Positions 1 through 62,534 of a stretch of DNA of 64,000 nt are shown piece after piece (positions within the stretch are counted from its first letter, which is position 1; every line of letters begins with the position of its first letter). The position numbers and the translations under genes were made by a program. A model generated the notes under the pieces. The model did not search any database and was not told where the DNA came from. It saw only the letters and a list, made by a program, of their open reading frames with translations. This DNA is from Chiloscyllium plagiosum (taxonomy: Eukaryota): positions 24,045,933 through 24,109,932 of the forward strand of contig NC_057719.1 in NCBI RefSeq assembly GCF_004010195.1. The letters are read 5' to 3'.

Positions 1-130
1 ATTCCTGAAGAAGGGCTTATGCCCGAAACGTCGATTCTCCTGTTCCCTGGATGCTGCCTGACCTGCTGCGTTTTTCCAGCAACACATTTCCAGCTCTGAT
101 CTCCAGCATCTGCAGACCTCACTTTCTCCT
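1..130 (+). mobile_element. Penelope-related short repeat carrying a hammerhead motif (cut by window edge)
   Basis: Near-identical to the right halves of the copies at 21107-21280 and 41309-41493. Confidence 0.8.
5..32 (+). ncRNA. minimal type I hammerhead ribozyme motif, intact core
   Basis: CUGAAGA-A-GGGC(UUAU)GCCC-GAAA-CG-UC. Core boxes intact, 4-bp stem II, palindromic ACGU in place of stem III, GUC cleavage triplet. Confidence 0.75.
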
Positions 131-619
131 CTCATATATCAGTTTGGCTTAGAATTCAGAGTGAAGTCCATGGATTTCAGACTACACTCTAAACTTGAGC
201 AGATAGTTTAAATTGGTGCTTGAGTTTAGGAAAGGGCTGTCTTTCAAATAAGATGCTGAGAGGACACCTCAGTTTCCAATCTCTAAAAACTGAGAAGAAA
301 CTACATAACTATTCTTAAAAAAAAATTGCCTGGCACCCTGACCAACATCCTTCCCTCAATCTGTTCAACTTATTCACTGACGACCCTTCTATATGGTCAG
401 AGAAAACAGAACCACACAAATCTCTGCCTAGCAATAAAGTTCCAGGAGTGAGACTATCCTAGCTGAGGTCACCAAGGCTGGAAGTAAATACCTGGTGAAG
501 AAGCTCATTGAACTGTTTCAGTTTAAAGGAGAGCAAGGAACCATATAGCACGAATAAAGATGTCTATACCTGTACAAGCAAAAATGAACTTGTCAAATAT
601 GTAAAGGAAGATATTCAAC

Positions 620-8007: not shown

Positions 8008-8312
8008 TCATTCCCCCTCCCCCCACCTTACCCCAGCTCCAACCTTCCAGCTCAGTACCATCCTCATGACCTGGTCCTACTTGTCAATCTTCCTTCCCAC
8101 CTATCCGCTCCACTCTCCTTTCTGACCTATCACCTACATCCCACTTACATCCACCTATTGTACTCTTGGCTACCTTCTCCCCAGCCCCATCCCACCTCCC
8201 ATTTATCTCTCCAACCCGGAGGGTCCCTGCCTCATTCCTGATAAAGGGCTTTTGCCCAAAATGTTGATTTTTCCTGCTGCCTGACCTGTTGTGCTTTTCC
8301 AGCACCACTCTA
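8008..8312 (+). mobile_element. Penelope-related 3' fragment (C-rich tract plus decayed hammerhead repeat)
   Basis: ctgataaagggcttttgcccaaaatgtt...gcctgacctgttgtgcttttccagca is a diverged relative of the repeat at 1-130. Confidence 0.65.
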
Positions 8313-21106: not shown

Positions 21107-21280
21107 GCTGGAAATGTGTTGCTGGAAAAGCGCAGCAGGTCAGGCAGCATCCAGGGAACAGGAGAATCGACGTTTCGGGCATAAGCCTGTTCCCTGGATG
21201 CTGCCTGACCTGCTGCGCTTTTCCAGCAACACATTTCCAGCTCTGATCTCCAGCATCTGCAGACCTCACTTTCTCCTCCT
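21107..21280. mobile_element. palindromic Penelope-related short element with 11-bp TSD
   Basis: Inverted arms 21107-21162 and 21186-21241. AAATTTTTATA at 21096-21106 and 21281-21291. Confidence 0.88.
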
Positions 21281-28938: not shown

Positions 28939-29090
28939 GTTAAAAAATCACGCAACACCAGGTTATAGTCCAATAGATACATTTGGAAGTACAGGCTTTC
29001 GGAGCGCCGATCCTTCATCAGGTAGCTGGGAGTAGCCTGGTGTTCTGTGATTTTTAACTTTGTCCACTCCAGTCCAACACCAGCAGCTCC
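28939..29090 (-). mobile_element. Penelope-related short element with inverted arms and a hammerhead motif
   Basis: Arms gttaaaaaatcacgcaacaccagg and cctggtgttctgtgatttttaac. Minus strand has CUGAUGA-A-GGA..UCC-GAAA-GCC at 28994-29021. Confidence 0.7.
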
Positions 29091-29404
29091 ATATCAAACA
29101 AATTACTCAATCTTCTCTAAGGGGAACACATCAGCTTCTCTAATCTATCTACATAACTGAATTTACTCATCCTGAGCATCCTTGAACCGCTTCCCCAAAA
29201 CCTTCACATCCTTCTTGAAGTGCAGGGTCCAGAATTGAACACAATATTTCAGTTGATGCCAAACTGAAACTTTCATAAGGATGCATCATAATTTTTGTTT
29301 TCAGTAGGTTAACAAGATCGGCAGAGATTATTTAGCCCAAGCAGGCGTTCTCACGCTATCATCTCAAGTGTCCCTCATTACCAGGCACCATGGCCCTATG
29401 ACCA

Positions 29405-30560
29405 AGACCATAAGATATAGGTGCAGACATGGCCATTCATGCCCATCGAGTCTGCTCCAGTCAACAAGATCATGGCTGATTTAATTATTGTCAACTCCAC
29501 TTTTCTTCTTTTTCCACATAACTCTTGAATCCCTTACCAATTATAAAAAATGTCCCTTTCAGCCATGCAATCAGCCTCAGTTAGAGACAAAAAAAAAACA
29601 GCTGTAATTCAAGGTAGACATGCAGGAGGCTGGAAGAACACAGCAAGCCAGGCAACCAGTCCTTTGCCCTGAAGAAGGGTTACACCTGAAACGGTGACTT
29701 CTTCACCTCTTGATGGTGCCTGGCTTGCTGTGTTCTTAAAGGATCCTGCTTGTCAACTACGAAATCAGCCTCATTAACCCTCTGTGGTAAGGATCTCGAC
29801 AGATACACAACCCTGTAAAAGAAATGATATGAAGGGGTATAGGCCAAGAATATGGAGGTAGGTCACATTGAATGGTGGGGTTTGAGGGGCTGAATGGCCT
29901 ACTCCTGCTTCTTAAAGCATCTGTCATAAATGACAACATTCTTATTGAGATTATGCCCTCAGGTTCTAGACACTCCCACGAGGGAAAACAACCCTTCTGT
30001 GTCTACCATGTGAAGTTCATGAAGACTCTTGTACTTTTCAGTCATTCTTATATGGTCAAATGCGTACAGGCCAAATCTACTCAATTTCTTCTCAAAAGAC
30101 AGTCCCACCATACCTCGTATCGGTTGACTGCAACTTATCTGGATCACCTCCATAAACAACATATCTTTCCTTGGAGAAGAAGCCCAAAACTCTTCTCAGT
30201 ATTTCAGCTGTGATCTGACTAGTCGCTTGTATAATTTTAGCAAAATCTATCTACTTTTATACTCCGTTTTCTTTGAAATCAAGGTCAACATTCCATTTGC
30301 CTTCCCTATTTTGGATGCTAGCTTTTATCATTTGTAGACAACAGCTTCCAAATCCTTCTGTTGTTCAGCTTTCTGGAGTGTTTCTACATTTGAATTATAA
30401 TCAGTTCCTCTGTAAAGTACATATCCTCACATTTTACCACATTATATTCCATCTGCTAAACTTTAGTCCACCCATTTAACTGTCTATATTCTTTTACTCT
30501 TTGGTTTATTCTTCCCACTTGCTTTCCCACCTGTTTTTGTGTCAATTGCAAATTTGGCAA
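29405..30560 (-). mobile_element. CR1 LINE 3' fragment with internal insertions
   Basis: Reverse tail (accataagatatagg) and decayed ORF2 C-terminus. Confidence 0.75.
29585..29760 (+). mobile_element. Penelope-related short element with inverted arms and decayed hammerhead
   Basis: Arms aagaacacagcaagccaggca and tgcctggcttgctgtgttctt flank CUGAAGA-A-GGGU(UAC)ACCU-GAAA-CGG at 29669-29695. Confidence 0.7.
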
Positions 30561-31257: not shown

Positions 31258-31350
31258 ATTCCTGATGACGGGCTTATGCCCAAAATGTCGATTCTCCTGC
31301 TTTTCAGATGCTGCCTGACCTGCTGTGCTTTTCCAGCACTACACTCTCAA
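31258..31350 (+). mobile_element. decayed copy of the hammerhead repeat inside an old CR1 fragment
   Basis: ctgatgacgggcttatgcccaaaatgtcgattctcc...ctgacctgctgtgcttttccagc. GAAAC is mutated at CpG sites. Confidence 0.75.
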
Positions 31351-32889
31351 CTCTTGGCACCTTCAATGATTTGTACACCTCTATACAATCGCAACATGTA
31401 TTTTATATTGCCTCTCTTCATACTTCTGACCAAAATATATCACCTCACACAGTCAAATGTCCTCTCAACATTCTTTCTCCTCTCAGTTCAAAACACATCA
31501 AAACTCTTTCATTATCTGCAATTTTGAAATTAAGCTCTGTATTCTCAAGAGGACGTTGTCTCACGATGCAGTGGGAGCATCCCTATGCTTGAGTCAGAAA
31601 CTTCAGGCTTGACACTCCAGGACTTGATAGTCAACCATGACGTGTTCACAACTTGGCCAAACTGGTTGACTGTCAACCTATAAACCCTTCCAATATATGC
31701 CAATGACAGCTAATAAGATAAGGAGAATTCTTGGTTAGCCATGTGACAGAAAGAAATTGGAGCCTCTACCACCTTTATTGGTTGGTCTGGATTACAGCAT
31801 GCTTTAAAAACATACATTGTCATTGCAACCTAGCCTCCCTGGGGAGTTGATCAGATGATGCAGATTAAATTGGTGCCAACAACACGTGATTCCATCCCTG
31901 TTCTGGCTGGGGTGGATTCAAGACGCCCTTCCTACCTTAACCATTCTGGAGATAGTGGCATTCAGACTTACATCTGCCTTTGGGCAGTTAACTTAAGAAG
32001 ACACCTAAATCTAAAAAATATATTTATTATAATCATACAGACGAATCCTCAGGACAACCCAAAACATCTCACAACTGATTAATGGCAACTAATAATTTCA
32101 CAGCTTATTAATCACTTTTCAACTGTATACACAGCCAATTAGTGCAAAGCAAATTCCCATGAAGAAAATGATTACTAATGTGCTTTTTTGAGTAACGTAT
32201 AAATGATTGGCAAGGAAAAAAAGTGAACAGTCCTGTTCTTTCACCATTTGGTCTATTATGTTCCATCGATTAAGTCAATAATTGACCTGATACAAAAGTT
32301 CACTCTCATTTATTATAGTTCAATGCCAGTATAGAAATGCAGTTGGGCTTGAAACCATAATGCTATGATTCAGAAACCATAATCTAGCTAGAGTAGCAAA
32401 CTTGAAGACTTTGGAATATACTGGAGTACACATTTAAAAGCTGAAACGGAGAACCACATTGTACTTCTGGATAGATGAACTAAAACAGGCTGAGATATTT
32501 TCAACCAATTGTCAATAGCACAGGAATTCCCTTTTTTAATTACTGATGCAGGGCCTTTTTTGTGTGCTGCTGCAAATTGCTAAAAAATGTGTTGTTAACA
32601 GTAACCTGTAGTCATCATAACTGACAGGCATACCTTCTCTTCCTTGTTTTGTTGAGGTAAGATGCTAGAATTCACAATAACTTATTCTCGACACAAGTGA
32701 AGAATGGCTGTGGGGGGGATAAGAAGGGATGAGTATTCTAAGATGGATGGCAAAAATGATGAGAAAACAGAAAATAGACAGAAGTGAGAAATAAGAAAAA
32801 ATAAATATTAGACAAATTATTAATCAGATTGATGATTGGAAAGATTGCAGACAACAATATTGTTGGTAGTTGAATGATACTTGCAAGGT

Positions 32890-33720
32890 TTGTGAAGGTT
32901 TGTAGCTCAGGTTGAGGTTTAGGGTGTAGGTTTGCTCACTGAGCTGTAGGTTTGATATCCAGATGTTTCATTATCTGGCAAGGTAACATCATCAGTGGCA
33001 ACCTCCAAGTGAAGCGAAGCTGTTGTCTCCTGCTTTCTATTTATATCTTTCTCCTGGGTGGGGTTCCTGGGCTTTTTGTGGTGATGTCATTTCCTGTTTG
33101 TTTTCTGAGGGGTTGATAGATGGCATCTAGATCTATGCGTTTGTTTATGGCGTTGTGGTTGGAGTGCCAGGCCTCTAGGAATTCTCTGGCATGTCTTTGC
33201 TTAGCCTGTCCCAGGATAGATGTGTTGTCCCAGTCGAAATGGTGGATTTTTTTCATCCGTGTGTAGGGCTACGAGGGAAAGAGGGTTGTGTCTTTTTGTG
33301 GCTAGCTGGTGTTCGTGTATCCTGGTAGCTAACTTTCTTCCTGTTTGTCCTGCATAGTGTTTGTGGCAGTCCTTGCATGGAATTTTGTAGATGACATTGG
33401 TTTTGTCCACTGGGTCTTTTAAGTTTGTTAGTTTTTGTTTGAGAGTGTTGGTGGGTTTGTGTGTTACTAGGATTCCGAGGGGTCTTAGTAGTCTGGCTGT
33501 CATTTCTGAAACTTCTTTGATGTATGGTAAGGTGTTTAGGGTTTCTGGCTGTGTTTGGTCTGCTTGTCGTGGTTTGTTCTTGAGGAATCTGCGCACTATT
33601 ATTTACAGCCAGACTACTAAGACCCCTCAGAATCCTAGTAGCACACAAACCCACCAACACTCTCAAACAAAAACTAACAAACTTCAAAGACCCAGTACAA
33701 CCCATGGACAAAACCAATGT
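32890..33720 (-). mobile_element. 5'-truncated Penelope-like element (PLE): GIY-YIG endonuclease, 3' region with hammerhead, inverted 5' segment
   Basis: NVIYKIPCKDCHKHYAGQTGRKLATRIHEH and ...REFLEAWH..NAINKRIDL (ORFs 33201..33596 and 33041..33256, frameshifted). 33605-33720 is an inverted copy of 33394-33500. Confidence 0.92.
32959..32998 (-). ncRNA. minimal hammerhead motif in the Penelope 3' region
   Basis: CCA-CUGAUGA-U-GUUACCU(UGCC)AGAUAAU-GAAA-CA-UC-UGG. Stem I is CCA/UGG. The stem III palindrome is broken (ACAU). Confidence 0.65.
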
Positions 33721-39415: not shown

Positions 39416-41030
39416 CTAAATAATAATAATAAATCCCAACTTGAACTTTAGTGTTATCAGAATTAGAATTATCTTCAAAACAGTCATTTAACAATCTATT
39501 GACATCAAAGGCACATAGACACTCTTTAATAAAGTTTGCTACTGATGGGGAGAGCACACTCGCTTTTCACAGCAGTCAGCTGCTGTATTCTGAAATTTAA
39601 AAGTCCAGAATCGCAGACAACCACTTTGATGGCTGTTGTCAAATGGCAAGTACAAAAGGAAGGTGAGAGATTAGGGTGCCAGGAGGGTAGGGTTACAGAT
39701 GAGTAAGGGGACAGAGTGCCAGGTTTTGGATGGGGGTTGAGAGAAGAATAGTGGACAGGAAACCATATGGGTAGGGGCAGGATGCCAAGTGAGTGGGGTA
39801 TGGGTAGCCAAGTAAGTGATGCATTATTATGGGAGATCAGAGTAGGTGGGAGAAACAGGCCCATCAGGGGTCAGAGGAGGAGTGGACAAGGGCATATTCC
39901 ACAGGGTAAAGGAAATTTGGGACCTGATGGGTGAACAGCAGGTGGTCAAGTGTAGTGAGAGTGAAAAAGGGTGAATTTAGGGTCTTGAGGGGGTGAATGG
40001 GAACAAGTGCAAAACAGGAACGGAGGATCAGATCCAGTAGCGGAAATGTTGGGTCAGGTAATGGGAAGTGGTGGAGGTATGTAAATGGTTGAGGGGTGTG
40101 TGTCATAAAGTCATAGAGATGTACAACTCAAAGTCAGTTTCATGGTAGACCAAGTATTTAATAGTCTAACTTTTCCTGACCAACTATTTACTTAGTTTCA
40201 TTGGACTCTCTGAATTGTCAGATTTAAAAAGGATACTTCCGGAAGGATCCAGACATAGCAGAATTACCCAGATAATCTTCAATTTCCTGGGCAATTTCTG
40301 AGTCTGTTACAATGACAACGATGCAGGGACTCCATGTGTAACTCCCATCAATACTGAAATAACAACTAGTCTTTGGAAATTCCAAGCCAATAATTTCAGT
40401 GGTCACACCAATGACATGTTTTAAGAATGGTCTAATATCTTCATATATAAATGAAGCAAGCTAAAAATAGTAAATATAAATATCGCAGACATAAATAGAG
40501 AAGACAACAGGAATGCATGCTGTTTTTACACTCCAAATCATAGAATTGATGCCAGAGCCTAGACTTAGACAACAGAAAAAAATAGAAATAATTTGATACC
40601 TCATTTCAAATTAGATATGTGAAGTATATATTGGAGATTTAAATGATATTTGCAGGCAGGAATAATTAATCTACTTGTTAAAATAATTACAGACTCTATA
40701 AAGTAAAATGTGAATCTAATTTTCAGAATGGGATATAAAAGTTATGTTAGCTTTTTATACATTAAGTTGGAGGCTACATGTAAATTTGTAACAATATGTA
40801 TCAGTAACATGATTTGACTGGATAATTTCAAAAACTGAATGCTTTGCTGATTTAAACAAGATAGAATGAATTGTACACTACTTAGGAATTATGCTTCATG
40901 TATAGTTACAAAACAAACTCAAGCAAATTGGAAGAATATTACTCTTCAAATAGGCATATTAATACATCTAGTTACTCAGCTTGCACATAATTTTAAAATG
41001 CTTAAAAATTAAACTAGAGATAGATCTTAC

Positions 41031-41210
41031 ATTTGTTGTCATTATTCTAAACATTATTGGTAAGAACTTGTAGTATATCTGATCGCTTGAAATGACTTGT
41101 GGCAGACAGGAAAACGTCAACAATAGCTTTTCATGTATTCTCCATTTTAAAGAAGTGGCAGCTCTCTGTTCAGCTATTGAAAGTGCTGGAATCAGGTCAG
41201 GAACATGTAC
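41031..41210 (-). CDS. PPP4R4: PPP4R4 coding exon, 180 nt, phase 0-0
   Basis: VHVPDLIPALSIAEQRAATSLKWRIHEKLLLTFSCLPQVISSDQIYYKFLPIMFRIMTTN (within ORF 40968..41249). CAG acceptor, GTAAGA donor. Confidence 0.97.
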
Positions 41211-41308
41211 CTGGTAACAGAATTTCCAATTAAAATAAGATGGATACAAACACTTGAAAAAGCCAAAACGTTAAATGTGTACATTTAAAATGTCATTAAT
41301 TTGATACC

Positions 41309-41493
41309 GCTGGAAATGTGTTGCTGGAAAAGCGCAGCAGGTCAGGCAGCATCCAGGGAACAGGAGAATCGACGTTTCGGGCATAAGCCCTTCCTGAAGA
41401 AGGGCTTATTGCCCGAAACGTCGATTCTCCTGTTCCCTGGATGCTGCCTGACCTGCTGCGCTTTTCCAGCAACACATTTCCAGCTCTGATCTC
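41309..41493. mobile_element. palindromic Penelope-related short element with 15-bp TSD
   Basis: Arms 41309-41393 and 41399-41484, with one extra T. CATTAATTTGATACC at 41294-41308 and 41494-41508. Confidence 0.92.
41394..41422 (+). ncRNA. minimal type I hammerhead ribozyme motif, intact core
   Basis: CUGAAGA-A-GGGC(UUAUU)GCCC-GAAA-CG-UC. Confidence 0.75.
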
Positions 41494-41779
41494 CATTAAT
41501 TTGATACCTTCTATCTTGCCTAAGCGATTAATTTATTACACATACAATGATGTAGTACTTAATTTAGAAGCAAGACTGCCATTATAGCCAAGATAAACTC
41601 TGCAAACATACTTCAAAAATGCAATAATTTACTTTGTTTATATAGTGTCATGCTAGAATAGTAGTGAAGACTGAATTGTCACATTTTTCTAGTTAGTTCT
41701 AAATGGAATAGATTCAGAACAGATTTAACAGTTCAAAATCTGATATCCATGAGGCACAATGCGACATCAACAACAGCAG

Positions 41780-43680
41780 AATTCTATTTGACTGCAATTT
41801 TTAAATTAAGAATCCAGGGGATCCCTCACTCTATCATTACCACAATGCCAGAGGATCAACACTTGCTCAGTGAGGAGAGCAAAACCATATGCCTAAAAAT
41901 GAGGTGCTAAACTGGTAAACTGATAGGGCTACATGCATGCAACTCAGAAGTAGCATGCAAAAGCAGAGCAAACCAACCAAAAATTCATTAACCTGATTAA
42001 CGTTTTGGAACCCTGCTACATCCAGCTGTGAATAATGGTGAACAATTAAACAACTAACAGAAAAGGCAGTTCCACAAATATCTCTATCCTCCTCAATGAC
42101 AGGGGAGCCCGGCAGGTCAGTACAAAGGACAGCTGAAACATTTGCAACCATCTGCAGCCAGAGTTGTCAAATGGGTGATCGTTCTTATTCTCAGCCTGAG
42201 TTCCCCATCATCAGATTTGTCAATCTTTAGCAAATTCAATTTTCTTCCTTGAGACATCAAGAAATGATTGAAAGCACCAAAAACAGCAAAGCATAGGAAG
42301 CCTGACAATATTCCAGCAGGAGTACTGAAAACCTCTTGTCCAAAACCAGCAGCAACCGGAGACAAACTGTTCCTGTATAGCAACAACACTGGCAGCTACC
42401 TAGCATTGTGAGAATTGTCTAGACATTCCCATCCACAAAATGAAGGCAAATCCAACTATGACCAATTCACACCCCAACAATCTATTCCCAATTATTGGCA
42501 AATATTAGGCAACAGTGCTATCAAATGGCTCTTAAACAATTTGCTTATTGGTGCTCAGATTGGGTTCCTTCAGACAACTCAGCACTTGACCTCATCATAG
42601 CCTTGATCCTAACATAGACAATCTAGATTAATTCAAGAGTTGAGGTGAAAGTGACTGTCCTTGACAGCACTTGATTGAGTGTAGTGTCAAAGTCAAGCAA
42701 ATGCCAAATGGGAATCTGGAAAAAGTTCTTCATTGATTGGAGGCATACCTACCACAAAAGAAAATGGTTGTAAATATTGGAAGTGAATCAATCCAGTTGT
42801 AGGACATGGCTGCAGGTGCTCCTCAGCATAATGTCCTAGGCTCTTCCCTCCATCCTTGAGTCAGATGTGGGGATGTTTATTAGGGATTGCAGTGTTCAGT
42901 ACTCTGAATGACACTTCAGATATTGAAGCAGACAGTGTCCATCTGCAGCAAGGTTTGGACAACATTCACATTTTGATTTATGAGATGCAAGTAACATGCG
43001 AGAGACACAAGTATAATATCATCTCCAAGAAAACCTAACTATTTCTCCCCTGTTTCCCCCTCAATAGCGTTAGCATTGCTGAATCCATCCACATCATTCT
43101 GGAATTGATCATTAATCAGAAACTAACTGAACCATCAGTATAAATACTACAGCTACAAGAACATGTCAGAGGCTAGGAATTCTAACACACCTCCTGGCTC
43201 CAAAGTCTGTCCATAAGGCATAACTTATGTCTATGATGGAATATTTTCACTTGCATCATCCAGGATAAAGTTGCTTGCTTGATTGATACACAACTAGTGC
43301 ACAATGGCAACCATGTGTCCTTTGTATAGGACATGCTGCAACAACTAACCAAGCCTCCTCAAAAGTGTTCTGAGGAAGGGTCATTTGACCTAAAACCTTA
43401 ACTCTGATTTCTCTCCAAAGATGCTGCCAGCTGAGATCTTCCAGCAACTTCTGTTTTTGATTCTTCCTTCAAAAGCACTTTCCAAATTCACGACATTAAG
43501 CAGCATTCACAAGAACCCCCTCAAGTCACACATCACCCTGGCATGGAACTACATTGCTCTTATTTCACTGTTGCTTGGCACTCCCTCTCTTAACATAGTA
43601 GAATGTACCTACACCAGGTAGACTGTAGCAATTTAAGAAGAAAGCTCATCACCAACATCTAATGGATAATATCCACTGGC
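41780..43680 (+). mobile_element. degenerate LINE of the second CR1/L2-group family
   Basis: Remnants KA..PDNIPA.VLK, P.NY.PI and Q.GF. 3' end aagaagaaagctcatcaccaaca. Confidence 0.65.
43366..43462 (+). mobile_element. short repeat with decayed hammerhead inserted in a LINE
   Basis: ctgaggaagggtcatttgacctaaaaccttaactctg...gatgctgcc..ccagcaac. Confidence 0.65.
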
Positions 43681-50167: not shown

Positions 50168-50343
50168 CAGAGGAACCTCGATTATCCAGTATTCGATTAT
50201 CCAAATTTTGGATATTCCGAACAAGATCGCAAGGTCCCGATGCTTGGCTAAACTGTGTTATCCAGCATTTGATTATCCGAATATTCAATTATCCGAACAA
50301 AATACTCCCTACCCAAGTCATTCGGATAATCAAGGTTCCTCTG
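50168..50343. mobile_element. pogo/Tigger-like MITE
   Basis: 20-bp TIRs cagaggaacctcgattatcc and ggataatcaaggttcctctg. Internal repeated GATTATCC motifs. Flanked by CA/CA rather than TA. Confidence 0.8.
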
Positions 50344-50434: not shown

Positions 50435-53400
50435 TCTTTCCTTTTACATGTATTTTTATTGAAAAGTAGATTTTTAAAATATTACAACAAATATAATACA
50501 ATTCAAAACAATACAAAAAAAACAAAAAAATTTTAAAAACCCAAACCACCCTCACGTACAAATATATATAAAAAATATAAGAAAAACTCCAACTAACTAC
50601 TTAACTAAATAAATAATACCTAACAACAAACTAATAAATAATAATAACGTGCAGCAAAACAAAACACTAACTCTCGAATATCAAGAGCATTAATTTTCAC
50701 ATATTCATCCGTTCGCAGTTCACCCTCTCTGGATATTGGACTTGTAAAGCGCAATCGTTGTGGCAGACAAATCTGTGTCCAGGTATTCCAAAAAGGGCTG
50801 CCATGTCTTATAGAAATTCTCAGTTTTGTGGTGTACCATACTTTTAAGAAAATCCAACGGGATATGTTCCATAACAATCTTACGCAAACCCGACAGGCCC
50901 CGGGGGGGGTTTTTGGACACTCAACCTAACGAGATATTCTTTCTTGCATAGAAAGTGAGGATGTTGAAAAGGTTTTTCTACAGGAAATACACTGGGCAGG
51001 CCAAGAAGAGAAGAGAAGAGATCGGGTTCTTCTCCACCCTTACACTTCAAATCCCCTCCATTGCACCTGCCACAGCACTCCCATATGTTTGAAACCTGCC
51101 ATAGGACCAGAAACAATGGGTAAGAGTGTCCGTACTAACTTTGCACTTGGGCATGTTGAAGATTCTCATGGTTTAAATTTTGACAAACGATCTGGAGCCA
51201 AGCGGACTCTGTGGAGAATCTTCAACTGTAAAGCAAGTGTCCTATTGTAAAGTGATATCTTTCTTACATTTTCCCATATATCTTCCCATGCCTCTGAGGA
51301 GACCTCAACGTCTCGTTCTCTCTCCCAAACCCTGCAAAGCTGATCAAACTCATCTGAGGGCCTGCACCCTCCCCCACCCCCCAAGTTGATGATATAGAGT
51401 GCTGACAGAAAGTGTACTCTTAGCACTTATGTCACCTTCTTCTCTATGTCAGATTTGTAGGGATCAGTCTGGAGTGTAATGTTTTTTTGAATAAAATCCC
51501 TAACTTGAAAAAATCGAAAGAGGTCCCTCCAAGATAGCTTGTATTTCCATGCCAACTGATCAAAAGACATCATTGTATCTCCCTCAAATAATCCTGAATC
51601 CATCATCCTTGGTTGAAAGCCTGGCATACCCACTATAGATGTAAGAAAAGATGTTTTGCCAATATTGCCTTCCATCTGCCAAATTGCCCTCCATGCTTTA
51701 ACAGTATTGATAACTATTTGGTTATGGCAATATTCATTAACTGTCTTAATTTTGTCCAAAAACAGCAAGCTCGTAAGGGGGCACTTTGCCTGAGAGGTTT
51801 CAATACCTAAACATATTCAAAGAGGGTCCCCACAAGCCCAACCACTCATGTAAAATAAAAGCAAGCTTAGTTGATAGTTTTAATGTCTGGGAGATCCACT
51901 CCCCCATTCTGTCAGACAACTGCAGTTTAGCTAATTTAATAAGGGGCTGCTTACAATGCCAAATAAAAGAGCCGAACCAGCTGTTCAGTCTCCTGAACAT
52001 TTGCTTATTGAAACTGGTAGGAGCATTCATATCGGTCATAACAAACGGACGGGGGAGAATATTCATCTTAATAAGAGCTATCCGACCTAACCATGAGACC
52101 GGAAGCGCCTCCCATTTTTGAAGGTCTTGTTTGATTTTGTTGACTAATTGAACAAAATTAGCTTTAAACAACCGATCAAAAACTGGAGTAATGAATATGC
52201 CCAAATACATAAAACCCCCACGTGACCACTTAAATGGGAATTGAGATTTGCTCTCAGGACCTAACACCTTCCTAAGACCACCCATAGGCTTGGCCTCTGA
52301 TTTTACAAAATTAATCTTGCACCCTGAAAAGGTGCCAAACGAGCTGATGCATTGTATCAGGAGAGGTCTTGAAACTGCTGGATTTGACAAAAAAATGACG
52401 ACATTGTCGACGTACAACAAAATCTTATGTAATTTTGACCCCACCTCTGGAGCCGATATATTGGGATCCCTGCGAATGGCCTTTGCCAACAGCTCAATCA
52501 CCAACGTAAAAAGCAATGGTGAAAGGGACAGCCCCCATAAAAATGTTAAAATTGCTTGATCGCGCCCCATTGGTGATAACCACAGTGAGATGGTCACTGT
52601 AGAGAACCTTGATCCATCTTGTGAAGGCTTTGCCCAAGCCAAACTGCTCTAGACTATAAAAAAGGTACAGCCACTCAACTTGGTCAAATGCCTTCTCTGC
52701 ATCTAAAGAAATCACCAATCCCTGTACTGACTGTTTTTGACATGCTTGAATTACATTAAGCAGCTTCCCAACATTATTGGAGGATCTGCAGCTCTTTATG
52801 AAGCCTGTCTGGTCCTCTTTAACAATAGATGGTAACACAGTTTCCAGCCTTAACACAAGACTCTTAGGCAGGATTTTAAAGTCAACACTTAAGAGTGAAA
52901 TGGGCACGTAAGAAACACAGTCCTCCAGGACCTTCCTTTTTTTAAGAACGAGCGAAATATTGGCAGAGGTAGACTGCATGAATCATTAAACATGTTGAGC
53001 ATCAGGCTAACAATATGCTTATAAATTCCTTATAGAATTCACTAGGGAGTCCATCAGGACCAGGTGCCTTTCCACCCTGAAGCTGCTTCACAGCCTCCTG
53101 CATCTCATGCTCTGATAAGAGGCATTCAAAAAAGACTCTTGTTCGGGGATTACACCCGAAAGCTCCAGATCCCTGATAAAGGGTTTCATCTTGGCCCGTC
53201 CCTCCTCACAACCCTCAGATTGGTATAATGCAGAATAAAATCTCTGAAATGCTGCATTAATCTTTTTAGAATCACATGTCAGGTTCCCAACACCTTCCCT
53301 ACTCGACATAATGGCTTGAGGGGCACTCTTTTTCCTGGTGAGATATGCTAGGTACTTGCCTGGTTTGTCACCATGCTCATACAACATTTGTTTTGCGAAA

Positions 53401-55985
53401 GTAAGCTCCTTCTTTGCTGTCTGCGTGAGCACGGAATTCAATGCAAACCACAGTGCCATAATCCTCTGTAGCTTGGCCAACACGGGCTTGTCAAAGTAAG
53501 CCTTCTCGGCTGCCTTCAACCGTGCTTCGAGGAGATGTTGCTGCTCACCCCTCTGCTGCTTCCTACTGGTGGAGTAGGAAATAACTAACCCCATAGCATA
53601 GGCTTTGGCAGTTTTCCAAAGGAAATACTGGCTACTAGCAAAGCCTGAATTAATGTCTAGGAAAGCCCAAATTCCTTAAAGAAGTACTCCACAAACTTAT
53701 TATCCTTAAGGGTAAAGGGATCCATTCATCAGTGCTTAGGGTCCACTATAGCATCCCTAATCTTAACCAACGGATACAGTGGAGCATGATGGGAAATGGT
53801 AATATTACCAATCGTACAAGGTACCACCAAGTCCAGGGTTGCCACGGGGGTCAGAAAAAATAAAATCAATCCTAGTGTGACATCTGCGTGAATTGAAAAA
53901 AAAACAAAATCCATGCCTGCAAGGTGCAGATGCCTCCAGACCTCCTCATCCCTAACTCCATACACAGATCCACTAATTGTTTAGTTTGTACAGAGAATAT
54001 CGGGGGGTTTTGGGGAACCTGTCTACTGTGGGGTCCGTAAGACAATTAAAATCTCCCCCTATGATGATACGCCGAGATTCGAGACTGATCAATTTAGAGA
54101 ACGTATCTACCAGAAACTTGGGGGGATGGGCCGGAGGGCAGTAAACATTTCAAACATGACATTCTTCCCCGATTATCAGGGCTTTGAGGATTGCAAACTC
54201 TCTGTGTGTGACTTTAACAAATGGGAGATTCCTCCTAACCAACGTAGCCACTCCTCTACTTCTGGTAATAAAAGATGAAAAGTAAACCCGATCAAAGCCA
54301 TTCTGCTGTAGTTTCAAATGCTCCTTTATCATTCAAGTGTGTCTCCTGTAATAAAGAAATATCCACCTTTTCCTTTCTAAGACTCGAGAGTACCTTCTTC
54401 CCTTTAATTGGTGAGTGACTTCCCTTGATGTTCCAGGTACACCATTTAATCAAATCATTAGCCATACCTTCTACATTAACATTTAGATTCCAGAGAGTTG
54501 GAACTCAAATTATAAATCGTCAAGCACAGTGTCACAATGTCTATCAAACATAAAAACTACATAAACTAAAACCATTGCAGTTAACAAACCTACAAAGCTA
54601 TAAAAGATTATATATAACAAAAACCAAAAAACAAACCAAATGTAAAGCGTCAATGGCACTGAATAGGGGAAGTCACCCCCTGCTCAAAGGGGGCATCTAC
54701 ATATCCCAAACCCAACTTCCCATCCCGCTGTCAATATAGCAGCAAGGGCATTTAAATACCTGAACCAGGCATAAATTGCCTTTGAGTAGGCATCTAACCA
54801 TCCCAACCATTTTCTCTCCAAGCTAGAGCTGCACCACAAACATAAGCAGCAAAGAAAGAAAATACACCATGGAATAACAATGTGAACAAAGACATTTTGA
54901 AAGAAAAGTTAGTATCCCACCCATGCTTTGGTATAACTTAACTTAGAAATTGAAAGTAAAGATCCCAGCCACCTCTGAGCACAGTTTAGACCAAGTTATT
55001 ACCAATAAAAAAAAGAAAGCCACAACCGGACTTCTTTTTTTTAAAGAAACATAGAGACGTACCTAAACAACACTACTATTTGTACAGATTAAATTAATTT
55101 GTCCACAAAGTCTCTTGCCTCCTCCAGCCAGATACCTCAGAGTATTGGTTCCTGAGTTCCCTCAGTCTTTTCTTGATGCCATCATAGAATTTTCTTTTCC
55201 AGATCATCGCTGCTGAGAAGTCCTGGAAGAACATGATCTTAGAGCCCTTGTAAAGTAGGGCCTTCAGATCCTTTCCCTGAATTCTGGAAGCTTCCACGAT
55301 TCCCTCCTTATCTCTGTAGTGATGAAACTGCACCAAGATAGGACAAGGACATTGGTCCAGACCTGACCTCCACATTGTGACCCGGTGAGCTCTCTCAATC
55401 TTCAAGCTTCCCATTCTAGCTGCCAAGTTAAGAAATTTCGGCAACCAGTCCGCAATAAATTCCACTGGTCACGCACCTTCCTTACCCTCCGGCAGACCAA
55501 CGGTTCAAATATTTTTCTCCTGCCCCTGTTCTTGAGGTCATCAACTTGGTCAAGCAAAGTATGGACCTGCGTCTTCAGGACCTGAAACCTATACTTGGAC
55601 GACTCGGAATCAGCATTCTACCTCACTGGACTTGTTCTCAAGGCCTCCCAGCTGCTGTTCATGCTTCTGCAGCATGATAGAGATCAGGGGCAGCTTCTCC
55701 TCTATCTGCTTACCCAGCATCTTGCAAGATTTCACAAACTCCGTTACTAGGACCTGGTAGGAAATTGAGCCCGAGAATCCTGCAGGCTGGGCTCCCTTCT
55801 TCGGCATCCCTGGATGGTGAAAACCAAGGTAAGTTATTCATTAACAGTTTCCTGGGACTCCACAACCTTTCCAGAGTCCCAGGGTATCGTGGTGATCCAG
55901 GTAGGGTGGCTTAGGACGCCGTCCCACTAGCGATGTGGTGCAGAGCTCTGCAACATGATCTTTCTTGATCGCTGTGATCTTCGAT
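50435..55985 (-). mobile_element. near full-length degenerate L1-clade LINE
   Basis: ORF1 remnants (IERAHRV, ILVQFHHYRDKE, IMFFQDFS) at 55094-55807. ORF2 starts at ATG 54465 (MANDLIKWCTWNIKG) and includes DQTGFI, SLDAEKAFDQV, LSPLLF, YVDN and YLGI. AATAAA near 50455. Confidence 0.93.
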
Positions 55986-60593: not shown

Positions 60594-61659
60594 ACCATCT
60601 ATTGAACGTTAGTAACTTACAAAAAATTACTTATTAAACCTTGTCCACCTATCTCTAAATTTCAATCCTCTATCCCTCTATTCCCAAAATCTGGCCAATG
60701 GGCATCTTTTCCCTCTGAGCATTCAATCATTCGGATCTTGAGCTCTGGTATTTCCTCAAATACGTCTCCAAGTTCCTACCTCCAAATGTGCAGGCAAACA
60801 CAACATACAAACTTCCAGTAGGAATCATAGATAAGATTATCACAGGTATGAACTGGATACATTGGGGTTCAAATCTTGCACATTTCTGGGGCTGAAAATT
60901 AGTGCTGTCAAAGAGCCATCAGAAGCAAATTTGAGAGTCTGATAACATCTAAATGTGACAGAAATATCTTAAAATGTTTAGCCAAATATTTTATAGCCAT
61001 TATTTTCATTTCTCTATAACACAAATAAAGAAAACTAACATATGATGACCTTATGGCTATAGTGAATATAGAATCTACTTATTCATTTATATAGGATGTG
61101 GGCATCGCTAACTAGGCCAGTATTTATCGCCTATCCTCTTTGCCCATGAGAAAGTGATGGTGAGCCATCTTCGTGGACTCGTACAGTCCTGTCTTAAAGA
61201 TATTCACATAAGAGAGTTCTGTGATTTTGACCTAACGACAGTGAATGACATTTTAAAGTTAGAATAGTGTGTGAAATTGAGAACTTGAAGTTCCCATGTG
61301 TTTGTTATCTTTACTTTTCTATATGGTGGAGATTATAGGCTTGGAATATGCTGCCAAAGTAACCTTGGTGACTTGCTGAAGTGCATTTTGTACACTGTTA
61401 ACCTCTCTCTCCATTAGCACGGTCTTATGCTGGCTCAGAGCTGCTCTTCCACTAGTTCCACTTAATCCTCCAGCTTATTCAACATACTAAACAGAAACAT
61501 TTTCTTTTCCTTTCAGGCATTAAAGAACATGAGATGCAATTCCTCAAAATACCCACACCTCTCTGGAGCCGTCCTCCCCTCCCCTTCCCTCTGACTCCAT
61601 CCCCTTTCCTGACTCCACATCCGGTTGAGTATTTACTATTTCTTCTGATGCTGAAGATT

Positions 61660-62475
61660 TTGCACTCAGCAAATATCTCAGTTTGATGCCTCTGCATCCC
61701 CACCTCAATGAATTTCAGACACGACATGATGTTAAATTCTTCTTCTGTCACCTTCGCCTCTGTGCTCACTTCTTTGTGCAAGAGTCCTGTCCCCATCCCA
61801 CAGAGACCTTCATCCACCTTCAACACTCTCCCTCCAGTCATTTATCTGCATTCAACCTTTTAATCGAGAACTGTCAACGTGACAATGGTTGCTTTAATTT
61901 CTCTGCCATCCCTTACCCATTCAATCTATCCCCCTCTGAACTGACTGCATTCCATGCTCTCAGATCAAACCCTGATTTTGTAAACAAGTCAGCAAGAGTT
62001 GTGATGTAGTTGTCTGATGTACTGACATTGCAGAGGTTAAGCGCCAACTCTCAGACACCTCCTGTATCCCCCAGATTATGACACCACCATCAAATCTCAG
62101 GCCATTGTGTCCACAAGTGACTAATCTCATTTTCCCCCACAGCCTCCAAGCTCAGATTCACCCAATCTTATACAGTCTGCATTTCCCTCCTTCCCAAAGT
62201 CCACAAACAGGACTGCCTGGGCAGATCCATTGTTTTTGCTTGCATTTGCCTCACAGAATGCATCTCTTCCCACCTTGACTCGACTTATTTTCTCCTCTTG
62301 TCCAGTCCCTTCTCACTTACATTGAAATTCATCTAATGTTTTGTCAGTTTCATGAATTTCTAGTTTGTGGGGTCCAGCTGCCTCCTCCTTCACCATGGAT
62401 GTGCAACCCCTTAACATGTCCATTCCCATCAGGATGGTCTCAGGGCTCTTCACTTCTTCCTGGAAGAAAAGTCTG
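61660..62475 (+). mobile_element. degenerate Penelope-like reverse transcriptase fragment
   Basis: FFCHLRLCAHFF, NLSPSELTAFHALRSNPDFVNKSA, PKVHKQDCLGRSIV, FTMDVQPL and DGLRAL motifs across frames. Confidence 0.8.
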
Positions 62476-62534
62476 AATCATCCCCATCTGTCACTTTCCT
62501 TTACCAGGCCTAGCTCATCCTCAGTTTGAATAAT

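Follow-up and report, generated by a model that had tools for sequence, protein, structure and literature searches.

The question raised by this locus is whether a hairpin with a hammerhead ribozyme core at its tip is an element in its own right, with a ribozyme that its structure turns on and off, or the product of the way in which the end of a retroelement was integrated. Within the window, the 64,000-nt stretch of DNA analyzed here, the insert occupies 185 nt (41309-41493) and is framed by perfect 15-nt direct repeats on the plus strand (41294-41308 and 41494-41508), which were rejected as a chance match at a probability of about 1e-6 with 400 boundary choices allowed. One arm spans 41309-41393 (85 nt) and the other 41399-41484 (86 nt); when one is inverted, they match at every letter save for one extra T (41409/41410), and they close a loop of CTGAA (41394-41398). 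It is clear that the hairpin insertion with inverted arms, CUGAA loop, and core described in a first-pass annotation of this DNA is real, as its coordinates were reproduced in the letters. Its description as a 185-bp palindrome holds for the 85- and 86-nt arms but not for the whole insert, since the last 9 nt (41485-41493, plus strand) are unpaired and constitute a stub, 9-11 nt long by comparison with full-tail copies, of a tail found in other copies of the family. Similarly, the 15-bp target-site duplication (TSD) that it reported is a perfect direct repeat with one copy at an empty site, but its true length is 13-15 nt, because the right repeat begins with two letters that match the tail as well. 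The region 41294-41508 folds into a single hairpin of -183 kcal/mol (z = -27), and none of 200 shuffles folded equally well. Rfam returned no hits at the gathering score across the whole window and, at the locus, no hammerhead among 18 E-value matches, which were mostly miRNA-hairpin models below the cut-off; a miRNA precursor was rejected, as these generic hairpin matches fall far under the cut-off.

The insertion itself is proven because organism B, a related species, has an empty orthologous site. A 2811-nt contig from this species joins 41293 straight onto 41494 and is short of exactly 200 nt, the length of the insert plus one repeat, leaving a single copy of the target, which is AT-rich (27% GC) and contains ATT. 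The insertion had been proposed to be young, and this is supported both by the empty site in organism B, where 43 of 1403 flank letters differ from the window, and by the identity of the arms to a sister copy at 21107 over 56 of 56 common letters. The letters of the insert at 41356 and 41437 account for about 40% of the depth in both organism A runs and for 2.4% and 1.4% in organism B, which suggests that the subfamily of the insert expanded after the split of the two species. Contigs of run X3, possibly the source sample and thus not independent, connect each flank to the expected arm. At 40693, the orthologous contig of organism B carries about 90 extra letters, another indel between the species. 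Judging by repeats of this kind, the host of the window looks shark-like.

Other copies of the repeat in the window, recognized by letter comparison, allow the insert to be read against a common scale. As a ruler, we used the copy at 1-131 (plus strand), a sense copy of the same subfamily that has a full core and tail and is cut by the window edge, with CUGA at 5, the predicted cut after 32, and the tail at 95-131. On this scale, the insert consists of an inverted, tail-less copy of the end module (41309-41393, minus strand) that runs antisense from family position 94 to 10 and stops inside the core, followed by sense positions 2 to 103/105, of which the end module proper, positions 2 to 94, lies at 41391-41484 (plus strand) and carries the extra T in loop II. 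The two are joined via a common TTC, a 3-nt microhomology at 41391-41393 revealed by comparing the arms. A sister palindrome of the same subfamily at 21107-21280 (plus strand, 11-nt TSD) has a full tail and no sense hammerhead, and is composed of antisense 94 to 14 and sense 39 to 131, joined via a common CC (2 nt). The inverted arm has an identical outer start in both, and the centre is different; the loop letters belong to the tail-bearing arm in the insert and to the tail-less arm at 21107. Taken together, these two layouts show an inverted arm with a constant outer start, a tail confined to the opposite arm, and a centre that varies. The family tail is 37 nt long and is full at 95-131, at 21242-21278, and in the loose contig ends behind 41495, while in the insert it is absent from the inverted arm, with 9-11 nt kept on the sense arm. 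Two older plus-strand copies lack a long inverted arm. One, at 31258-31354, is 81% identical, has no tail and a decayed GAAA, and starts 4 nt before CUGA, compared to 3 nt before it for the sense arm of the insert; the other, at 8234-8308, is about 76% identical and starts further upstream, where its letters are those of the family upstream consensus from the loose ends.

The variability of the centre extends beyond the window. When sequencing runs were matched to 40600-42200, the three non-RNA (DNA) runs from which counts were taken placed 41,212, 21,316, and 29,854 contigs on this interval, and the depth peaks over the element. A raw RNA run contributed 0 reads out of 8.3 million, a count that carries no weight either way. 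The copy number of the family is thus very high, although summed contig depth was not used as its measure. The contigs of these runs contain 238 reported joints, and the 15 listed ones have 14 different second-arm inner ends, spread over family positions 21-83. The junctions are not random, because 10 of the 15 have one arm reaching the core, an excess that is partly reference bias because the left arm of the reference ends at the core. Per run, 237, 172, and 209 contigs pass 41393 into the family upstream sequence instead of turning, and behind 41495, 187, 127, and 123 enter the tail. A stop or RNA start at the hammerhead edge is likely.

These data bear most directly on the proposal of the first-pass annotation that the insert is a palindromic, non-autonomous element mobilized as one intact hairpin RNA, its loop ribozyme masked until a second fold forms. 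The near-perfect arms and TSD would be expected of such an element, the 10 listed joints with an arm at the core are compatible with it, and there are joints common to two or three runs. In addition, two organism B contigs, among 24 shown of 93,638 pieces, cross 41393/41394 without a joint, one of 76 nt at a depth of 32.6 and the other of 69 nt with 2 gaps at 112.6, both above the single-copy depth of 13.4. As organism B is without the insertion, the same or nearly the same centre appears to be present at other organism B loci. Such repeated centres can be explained by recurrent joining at TTC or by limited re-transposition. On the other hand, the inversion points differ between copies, both at 21107, which has another centre and no sense core, and in the joints, and most listed loose ends at 41393 run on upstream. 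Although two contigs do cross the centre of the insert, the single common centre of a fixed palindromic non-autonomous family was not found, and the idea of a defined palindromic element with a ribozyme in its loop fails on the variation of centres between 21107 and the 238 joints. The tail, which is the start of reverse transcription (RT) in an anole element, is also mostly missing from the insert. Together with the folding results below, this leaves the movement of a whole hairpin RNA improbable.

Long DNA hairpins are prone to deletion, and a later loss of the hairpin tip could also give variable centres. According to this explanation, the inserted palindrome was originally fixed and longer, and different loci subsequently lost different lengths of its tip; the junction microhomologies of 3 and 2 nt would fit deletions too. 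It is difficult to reconcile with the youth of both palindromes, which have identical arms and perfect TSDs, with the two older copies that show no long inverted arm, and with published Penelope-like element (PLE) insertions that vary likewise (PMC3846280 and PMC8557442, both in excerpt), and we regard it as quite improbable. The long inverted arms might also suggest a MITE, a DNA transposon with terminal inverted repeats, yet the ends are asymmetric with the tail on one side only, the TSDs measure 13-15 nt in one case and 11 nt in the other, and there are many copies with a single arm or with an upstream continuation. Lacking both symmetric terminal inverted repeats and a fixed TSD length, a MITE was rejected as a candidate. 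Since the centre is spanned by none of the listed organism A contigs, the exact junction and the extra T come from the window assembly alone, which would be consistent with an assembly artefact; against this, the run X3 contigs join the flanks to the expected arms and the site is empty in organism B. A MITE or an artefact thus seems extremely improbable. Elsewhere in the window, a 176-nt MITE-like element with 20-nt terminal inverted repeats (95%) is present at 50168-50343.

The core lies at 41394-41422 on the plus strand and was identified by a pattern scan as CTGAAGA-A-GGGC-TTATT-GCCC-GAAA-CGTC. This pattern occurs at 2 places in the window (41394 and 5) and in none of 100 shuffles; a looser scan found 4 perfect cores compared to 0 in each of 10 shuffles, and one with mismatches allowed found 12 compared to 1-6. 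It comprises CUGAAGA, an extra A, a 4-bp stem II, GAAA, and a self-complementary ACGU, with a predicted cut after C41422. All features of the minimal type I descriptor (PMC4209133, in excerpt) are present, namely CUGANGA, GAAA, NUH, an extra base before G10.1, stem II, and a palindromic 15.2-16.2, and the identification of a PLE-type minimal hammerhead is therefore upheld. Stem II letters are invariant in the 4 family copies with a sense core, where variation is confined to the loop, and stem II still pairs, with other letters, in two further repeats of the window. Loop II of the family is 4 nt, the 5-nt loop being a variant of the sense arm of the insert. Stem I has just 2 consecutive bp here (in sister copies, 2 bp, a U-U mismatch, and 1 bp), so that the insert copy is without a helix I of several base pairs; this helix is 4-5 bp in Schistosoma motifs and 2 bp in an atypical D. 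virilis motif (PMC4209133, in excerpt). The minus strand has no CUGANGA, since the inverted arm stops within the core.

Folding calculations place the ribozyme far from the favored structure. A structure constrained to form stem II with a free core lies 28.7 kcal/mol above the ensemble, and one that must also have stem I and a free ACGU lies 38.1 kcal/mol above it. The probability of the ribozyme fold is about 6e-21, which, along with the 2-bp stem I, argues against a hairpin RNA that moves as a whole and is later unmasked. The sense arm alone forms stem II with a probability of 0.98, while in transcripts of the insert the outer pair of stem II stays at or below 7e-7 at each of 5 lengths tested, because on the plus strand the antisense arm is transcribed first. 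The two mutually exclusive folds envisaged earlier are thus not borne out. Any read-through transcript is predicted to fold so that the ribozyme is buried within the hairpin, the insert copy is likely inert as a ribozyme, and as modeled the relation between the folds is one of masking rather than a switch.

It is our view, held with good confidence, that the insert represents two head-to-head copies of the hammerhead end of an abundant repeat, likely a PLE pseudo-LTR (pLTR), and that the palindromic layout likely arose as the end integrated and was not already present in the template RNA. On its architecture, the family likely belongs to the PLEs. What is observed is an AT-rich site, a 13-15-nt duplication, a tail-less arm from a fixed start, another arm ending in the tail, and a 3-nt microhomology at the join, with different centres in other copies. 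To account for these, a PLE RT/GIY-YIG protein acting in trans would nick both strands 13-15 nt apart, and two cDNAs would be primed from two reverse-transcription start regions that bracket the tail, one at the tail-less start and the other inside the tail, the latter aided by a 2-nt match to the target. Both cDNAs would stop near the 5' edge of the hammerhead and anneal through 3 nt (TTC/GAA), and a further 8 nt of synthesis in the sense cDNA would account for the position of CUGAA in the loop.

A PLE origin is also compatible with a palindrome made by fold-back self-priming, in which the 3' GAA of a strand pairs with TTC five bases back and the strand then copies itself. The junction shows exactly such a 3-bp pairing around a 5-nt loop, and palindromic PLE junctions have been read as self-priming on an antisense template (PMC3846280, in excerpt). 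However, the longer arm is the tail-bearing one in the insert and the tail-less one at 21107, and because the arm that contributes the loop differs between them, fold-back of a tail-primed cDNA alone is insufficient. The extra T occurs in one arm only, a single base that could be a later mutation, and several listed joints have 0 letters in common or added letters. Fold-back is accordingly a possible but lesser account, and within the reading of the insert as a PLE end, we favor two primers as about twice as likely, because of this difference in the loop arm. The two-primer step has been shown for no PLE insertion in the literature consulted for this analysis, which, beyond the cited papers, contained no account of this repeat family or of a two-primer model, subscription papers and Repbase/Dfam being mostly uncovered.

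There is also an unlikely but more far-reaching version, in which a short, ORF-less RNA of about 130 nt, begun at the upstream edge of the hammerhead rather than at the cut site, would drive the family. A dimer of the PLE protein would copy it twice, once per target strand, the insert would be a near full-length double product, and a minority of hairpins with the same centre may re-transpose as a unit. If this were true, the copy number and the empty sites in a close relative would let junction statistics separate two-primer from fold-back synthesis.

Several further observations weigh on the preferred explanation, that of a PLE end made palindromic on landing. Counting for it are two other head-to-head repeats in the window, a perfect core adjoining a GIY-YIG fragment at 33 kb, and the published range of 30-40 nt for one-end tails, which includes 37 nt. 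Counting against it are the absence of an RT-EN ORF linked to the family, the organism B contigs that cross the centre, and the recurring joints. The 33 kb repeat is a different family from the insert. It is a PLE remnant on the minus strand (32962-33720) in which the GIY-YIG fragment is followed by the perfect minimal core (32995-32962), with a 92-nt inverted duplication (33409-33500/33605-33696) at its truncated end. The fragment has 5584 relatives at E <=0.001, and among 8 long relatives chosen, 7 have RVT_1 and 4 also have GIY-YIG. Head-to-head units of older repeats are present at 28943-29100 and 29614-29757; the latter has an intact core at 29669, and the former has a tail-like right extension and a decayed core-like motif on the minus strand that was seen by eye and missed by the scan. 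At 43366-43460 lies a decayed solo hammerhead-headed copy of a related repeat, which starts about 4 nt before CUGA and is bracketed by a short imperfect direct repeat, also seen by eye.

The search for a coding partner gave at most a lead rather than a link. A tblastn search of 150 proteins against the family end tied no RT-EN ORF to the family, a PDB search with the 33 kb fragment gave no tie to a PLE protein, and word-index searches, which are weak, found no PLE protein link to the family or to a remnant at 61.5-62.5 kb; an Atlas search for such a link gave a best score of 0.86, a lead only. Scans with the core pattern found 0 copies in metagenome contigs, viral contigs, and prokaryote genomes. 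The remnant (61500-62530) is decayed and RT-like, and we take it to resemble a Neptune-type PLE, for which the Pfam, word-index, and Atlas searches gave no support. Other RT-related sequence in the window includes a fragmented minus-strand LINE at 51400-55500, with an RVT_1 match at 52494-52979, and a LINE-like RT region containing a 602-nt tandem duplication (5106-5706/5705-6306, 99% identity) that is either a recent duplication or an assembly repeat.

As one young copy of a described insertion pattern, the locus is of little weight by itself. The value of the family lies in its data, as very many young junctions, together with empty sites in a close relative, bear on how PLEs make inverted ends and on what PLE hammerheads do. 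If transcribed, such hairpins would also give 85-bp dsRNA.

Set against known systems, the insert shares with non-LTR retrozymes a non-coding nature, a type I hammerhead, and a relation to PLE pLTRs, but by definition these have a full hammerhead in every one of at least 2 tandem units (Li, Clavereau and Pollet 2026, bioRxiv 10.64898/2026.07.22.740005, in excerpt), whereas the insert has one core in an inverted arrangement. No tandem array was found at the locus among the 4 TRF rows in the window, and the insert is thus no non-LTR retrozyme under that definition; with one core and a minus strand devoid of CUGANGA, the earlier label of retrozyme-like does not stand. The likeness to the minimal hammerhead defined in PMC4209133 (in excerpt) encompasses the core letters, the extra base between A9 and G10.1, the G10.1-C11.1 pair, the palindromic 15.2-16.2, and the lack of a loop III, while the 2-bp stem I and the burial of the motif in a long hairpin set the insert apart. 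Such motifs are described there as mostly solo motifs from truncated PLEs, with opposite-strand pairs 100-700 bp apart, and as inactive as monomers and of low activity as dimers. The mechanism considered here leans on Poseidon of Anolis carolinensis (Frangieh et al. 2024, PMC11167929, in excerpt), whose protein, a dimer by prediction, prefers ATT and both nicks and extends the two strands of its target, with RT starting at two internal sites that define and bracket the tail. In that system, the hammerhead needs the protein in order to cleave, and insertion in vitro does not depend on cleavage. The insert resembles Poseidon in its AT-rich target with ATT, and its fixed tail-less end and its tail end would fit two RT start sites with both strands extended; it differs in the family tail, which is pyrimidine-rich rather than AC-rich and of which 9-11 nt remain.

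The nearest counterparts are the insertion units of EN+ PLEs (Arkhipova et al. 2013, PMC3846280; Craig et al. 2021, PMC8557442; both in excerpt), which likewise have an inverted, truncated head-to-head copy, an overlap at the junction, a tail at one end, and a short TSD. In the first of these papers, an inverted pLTR overlaps a direct one, the TSDs measure 8-10 bp, and a 31-bp tail may be present; the second reports as general for PLEs that the inverted copy is 5'-truncated and that one end has a tail of 30-40 bp, and a list for curators gives the same features (PMC8969392, in excerpt). By contrast, both arms of the insert are shorter than 100 nt, so that the whole unit is one hairpin, and its family is very high-copy. 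The insert belongs with the EN+ PLE units by 4 of the 5 features compared, namely a hammerhead in the terminal repeat, an inverted 5'-truncated head-to-head copy, a one-end tail, and a short TSD at an AT-rich site; the fifth, a link to an RT and GIY-YIG ORF, was found only for the 33 kb repeat. The earlier suggestion that the inversion is typical of PLEs agrees with the head-to-head inverted truncated copy of the published units, and the insert is a further example of this described pattern of PLE insertion rather than a new kind.
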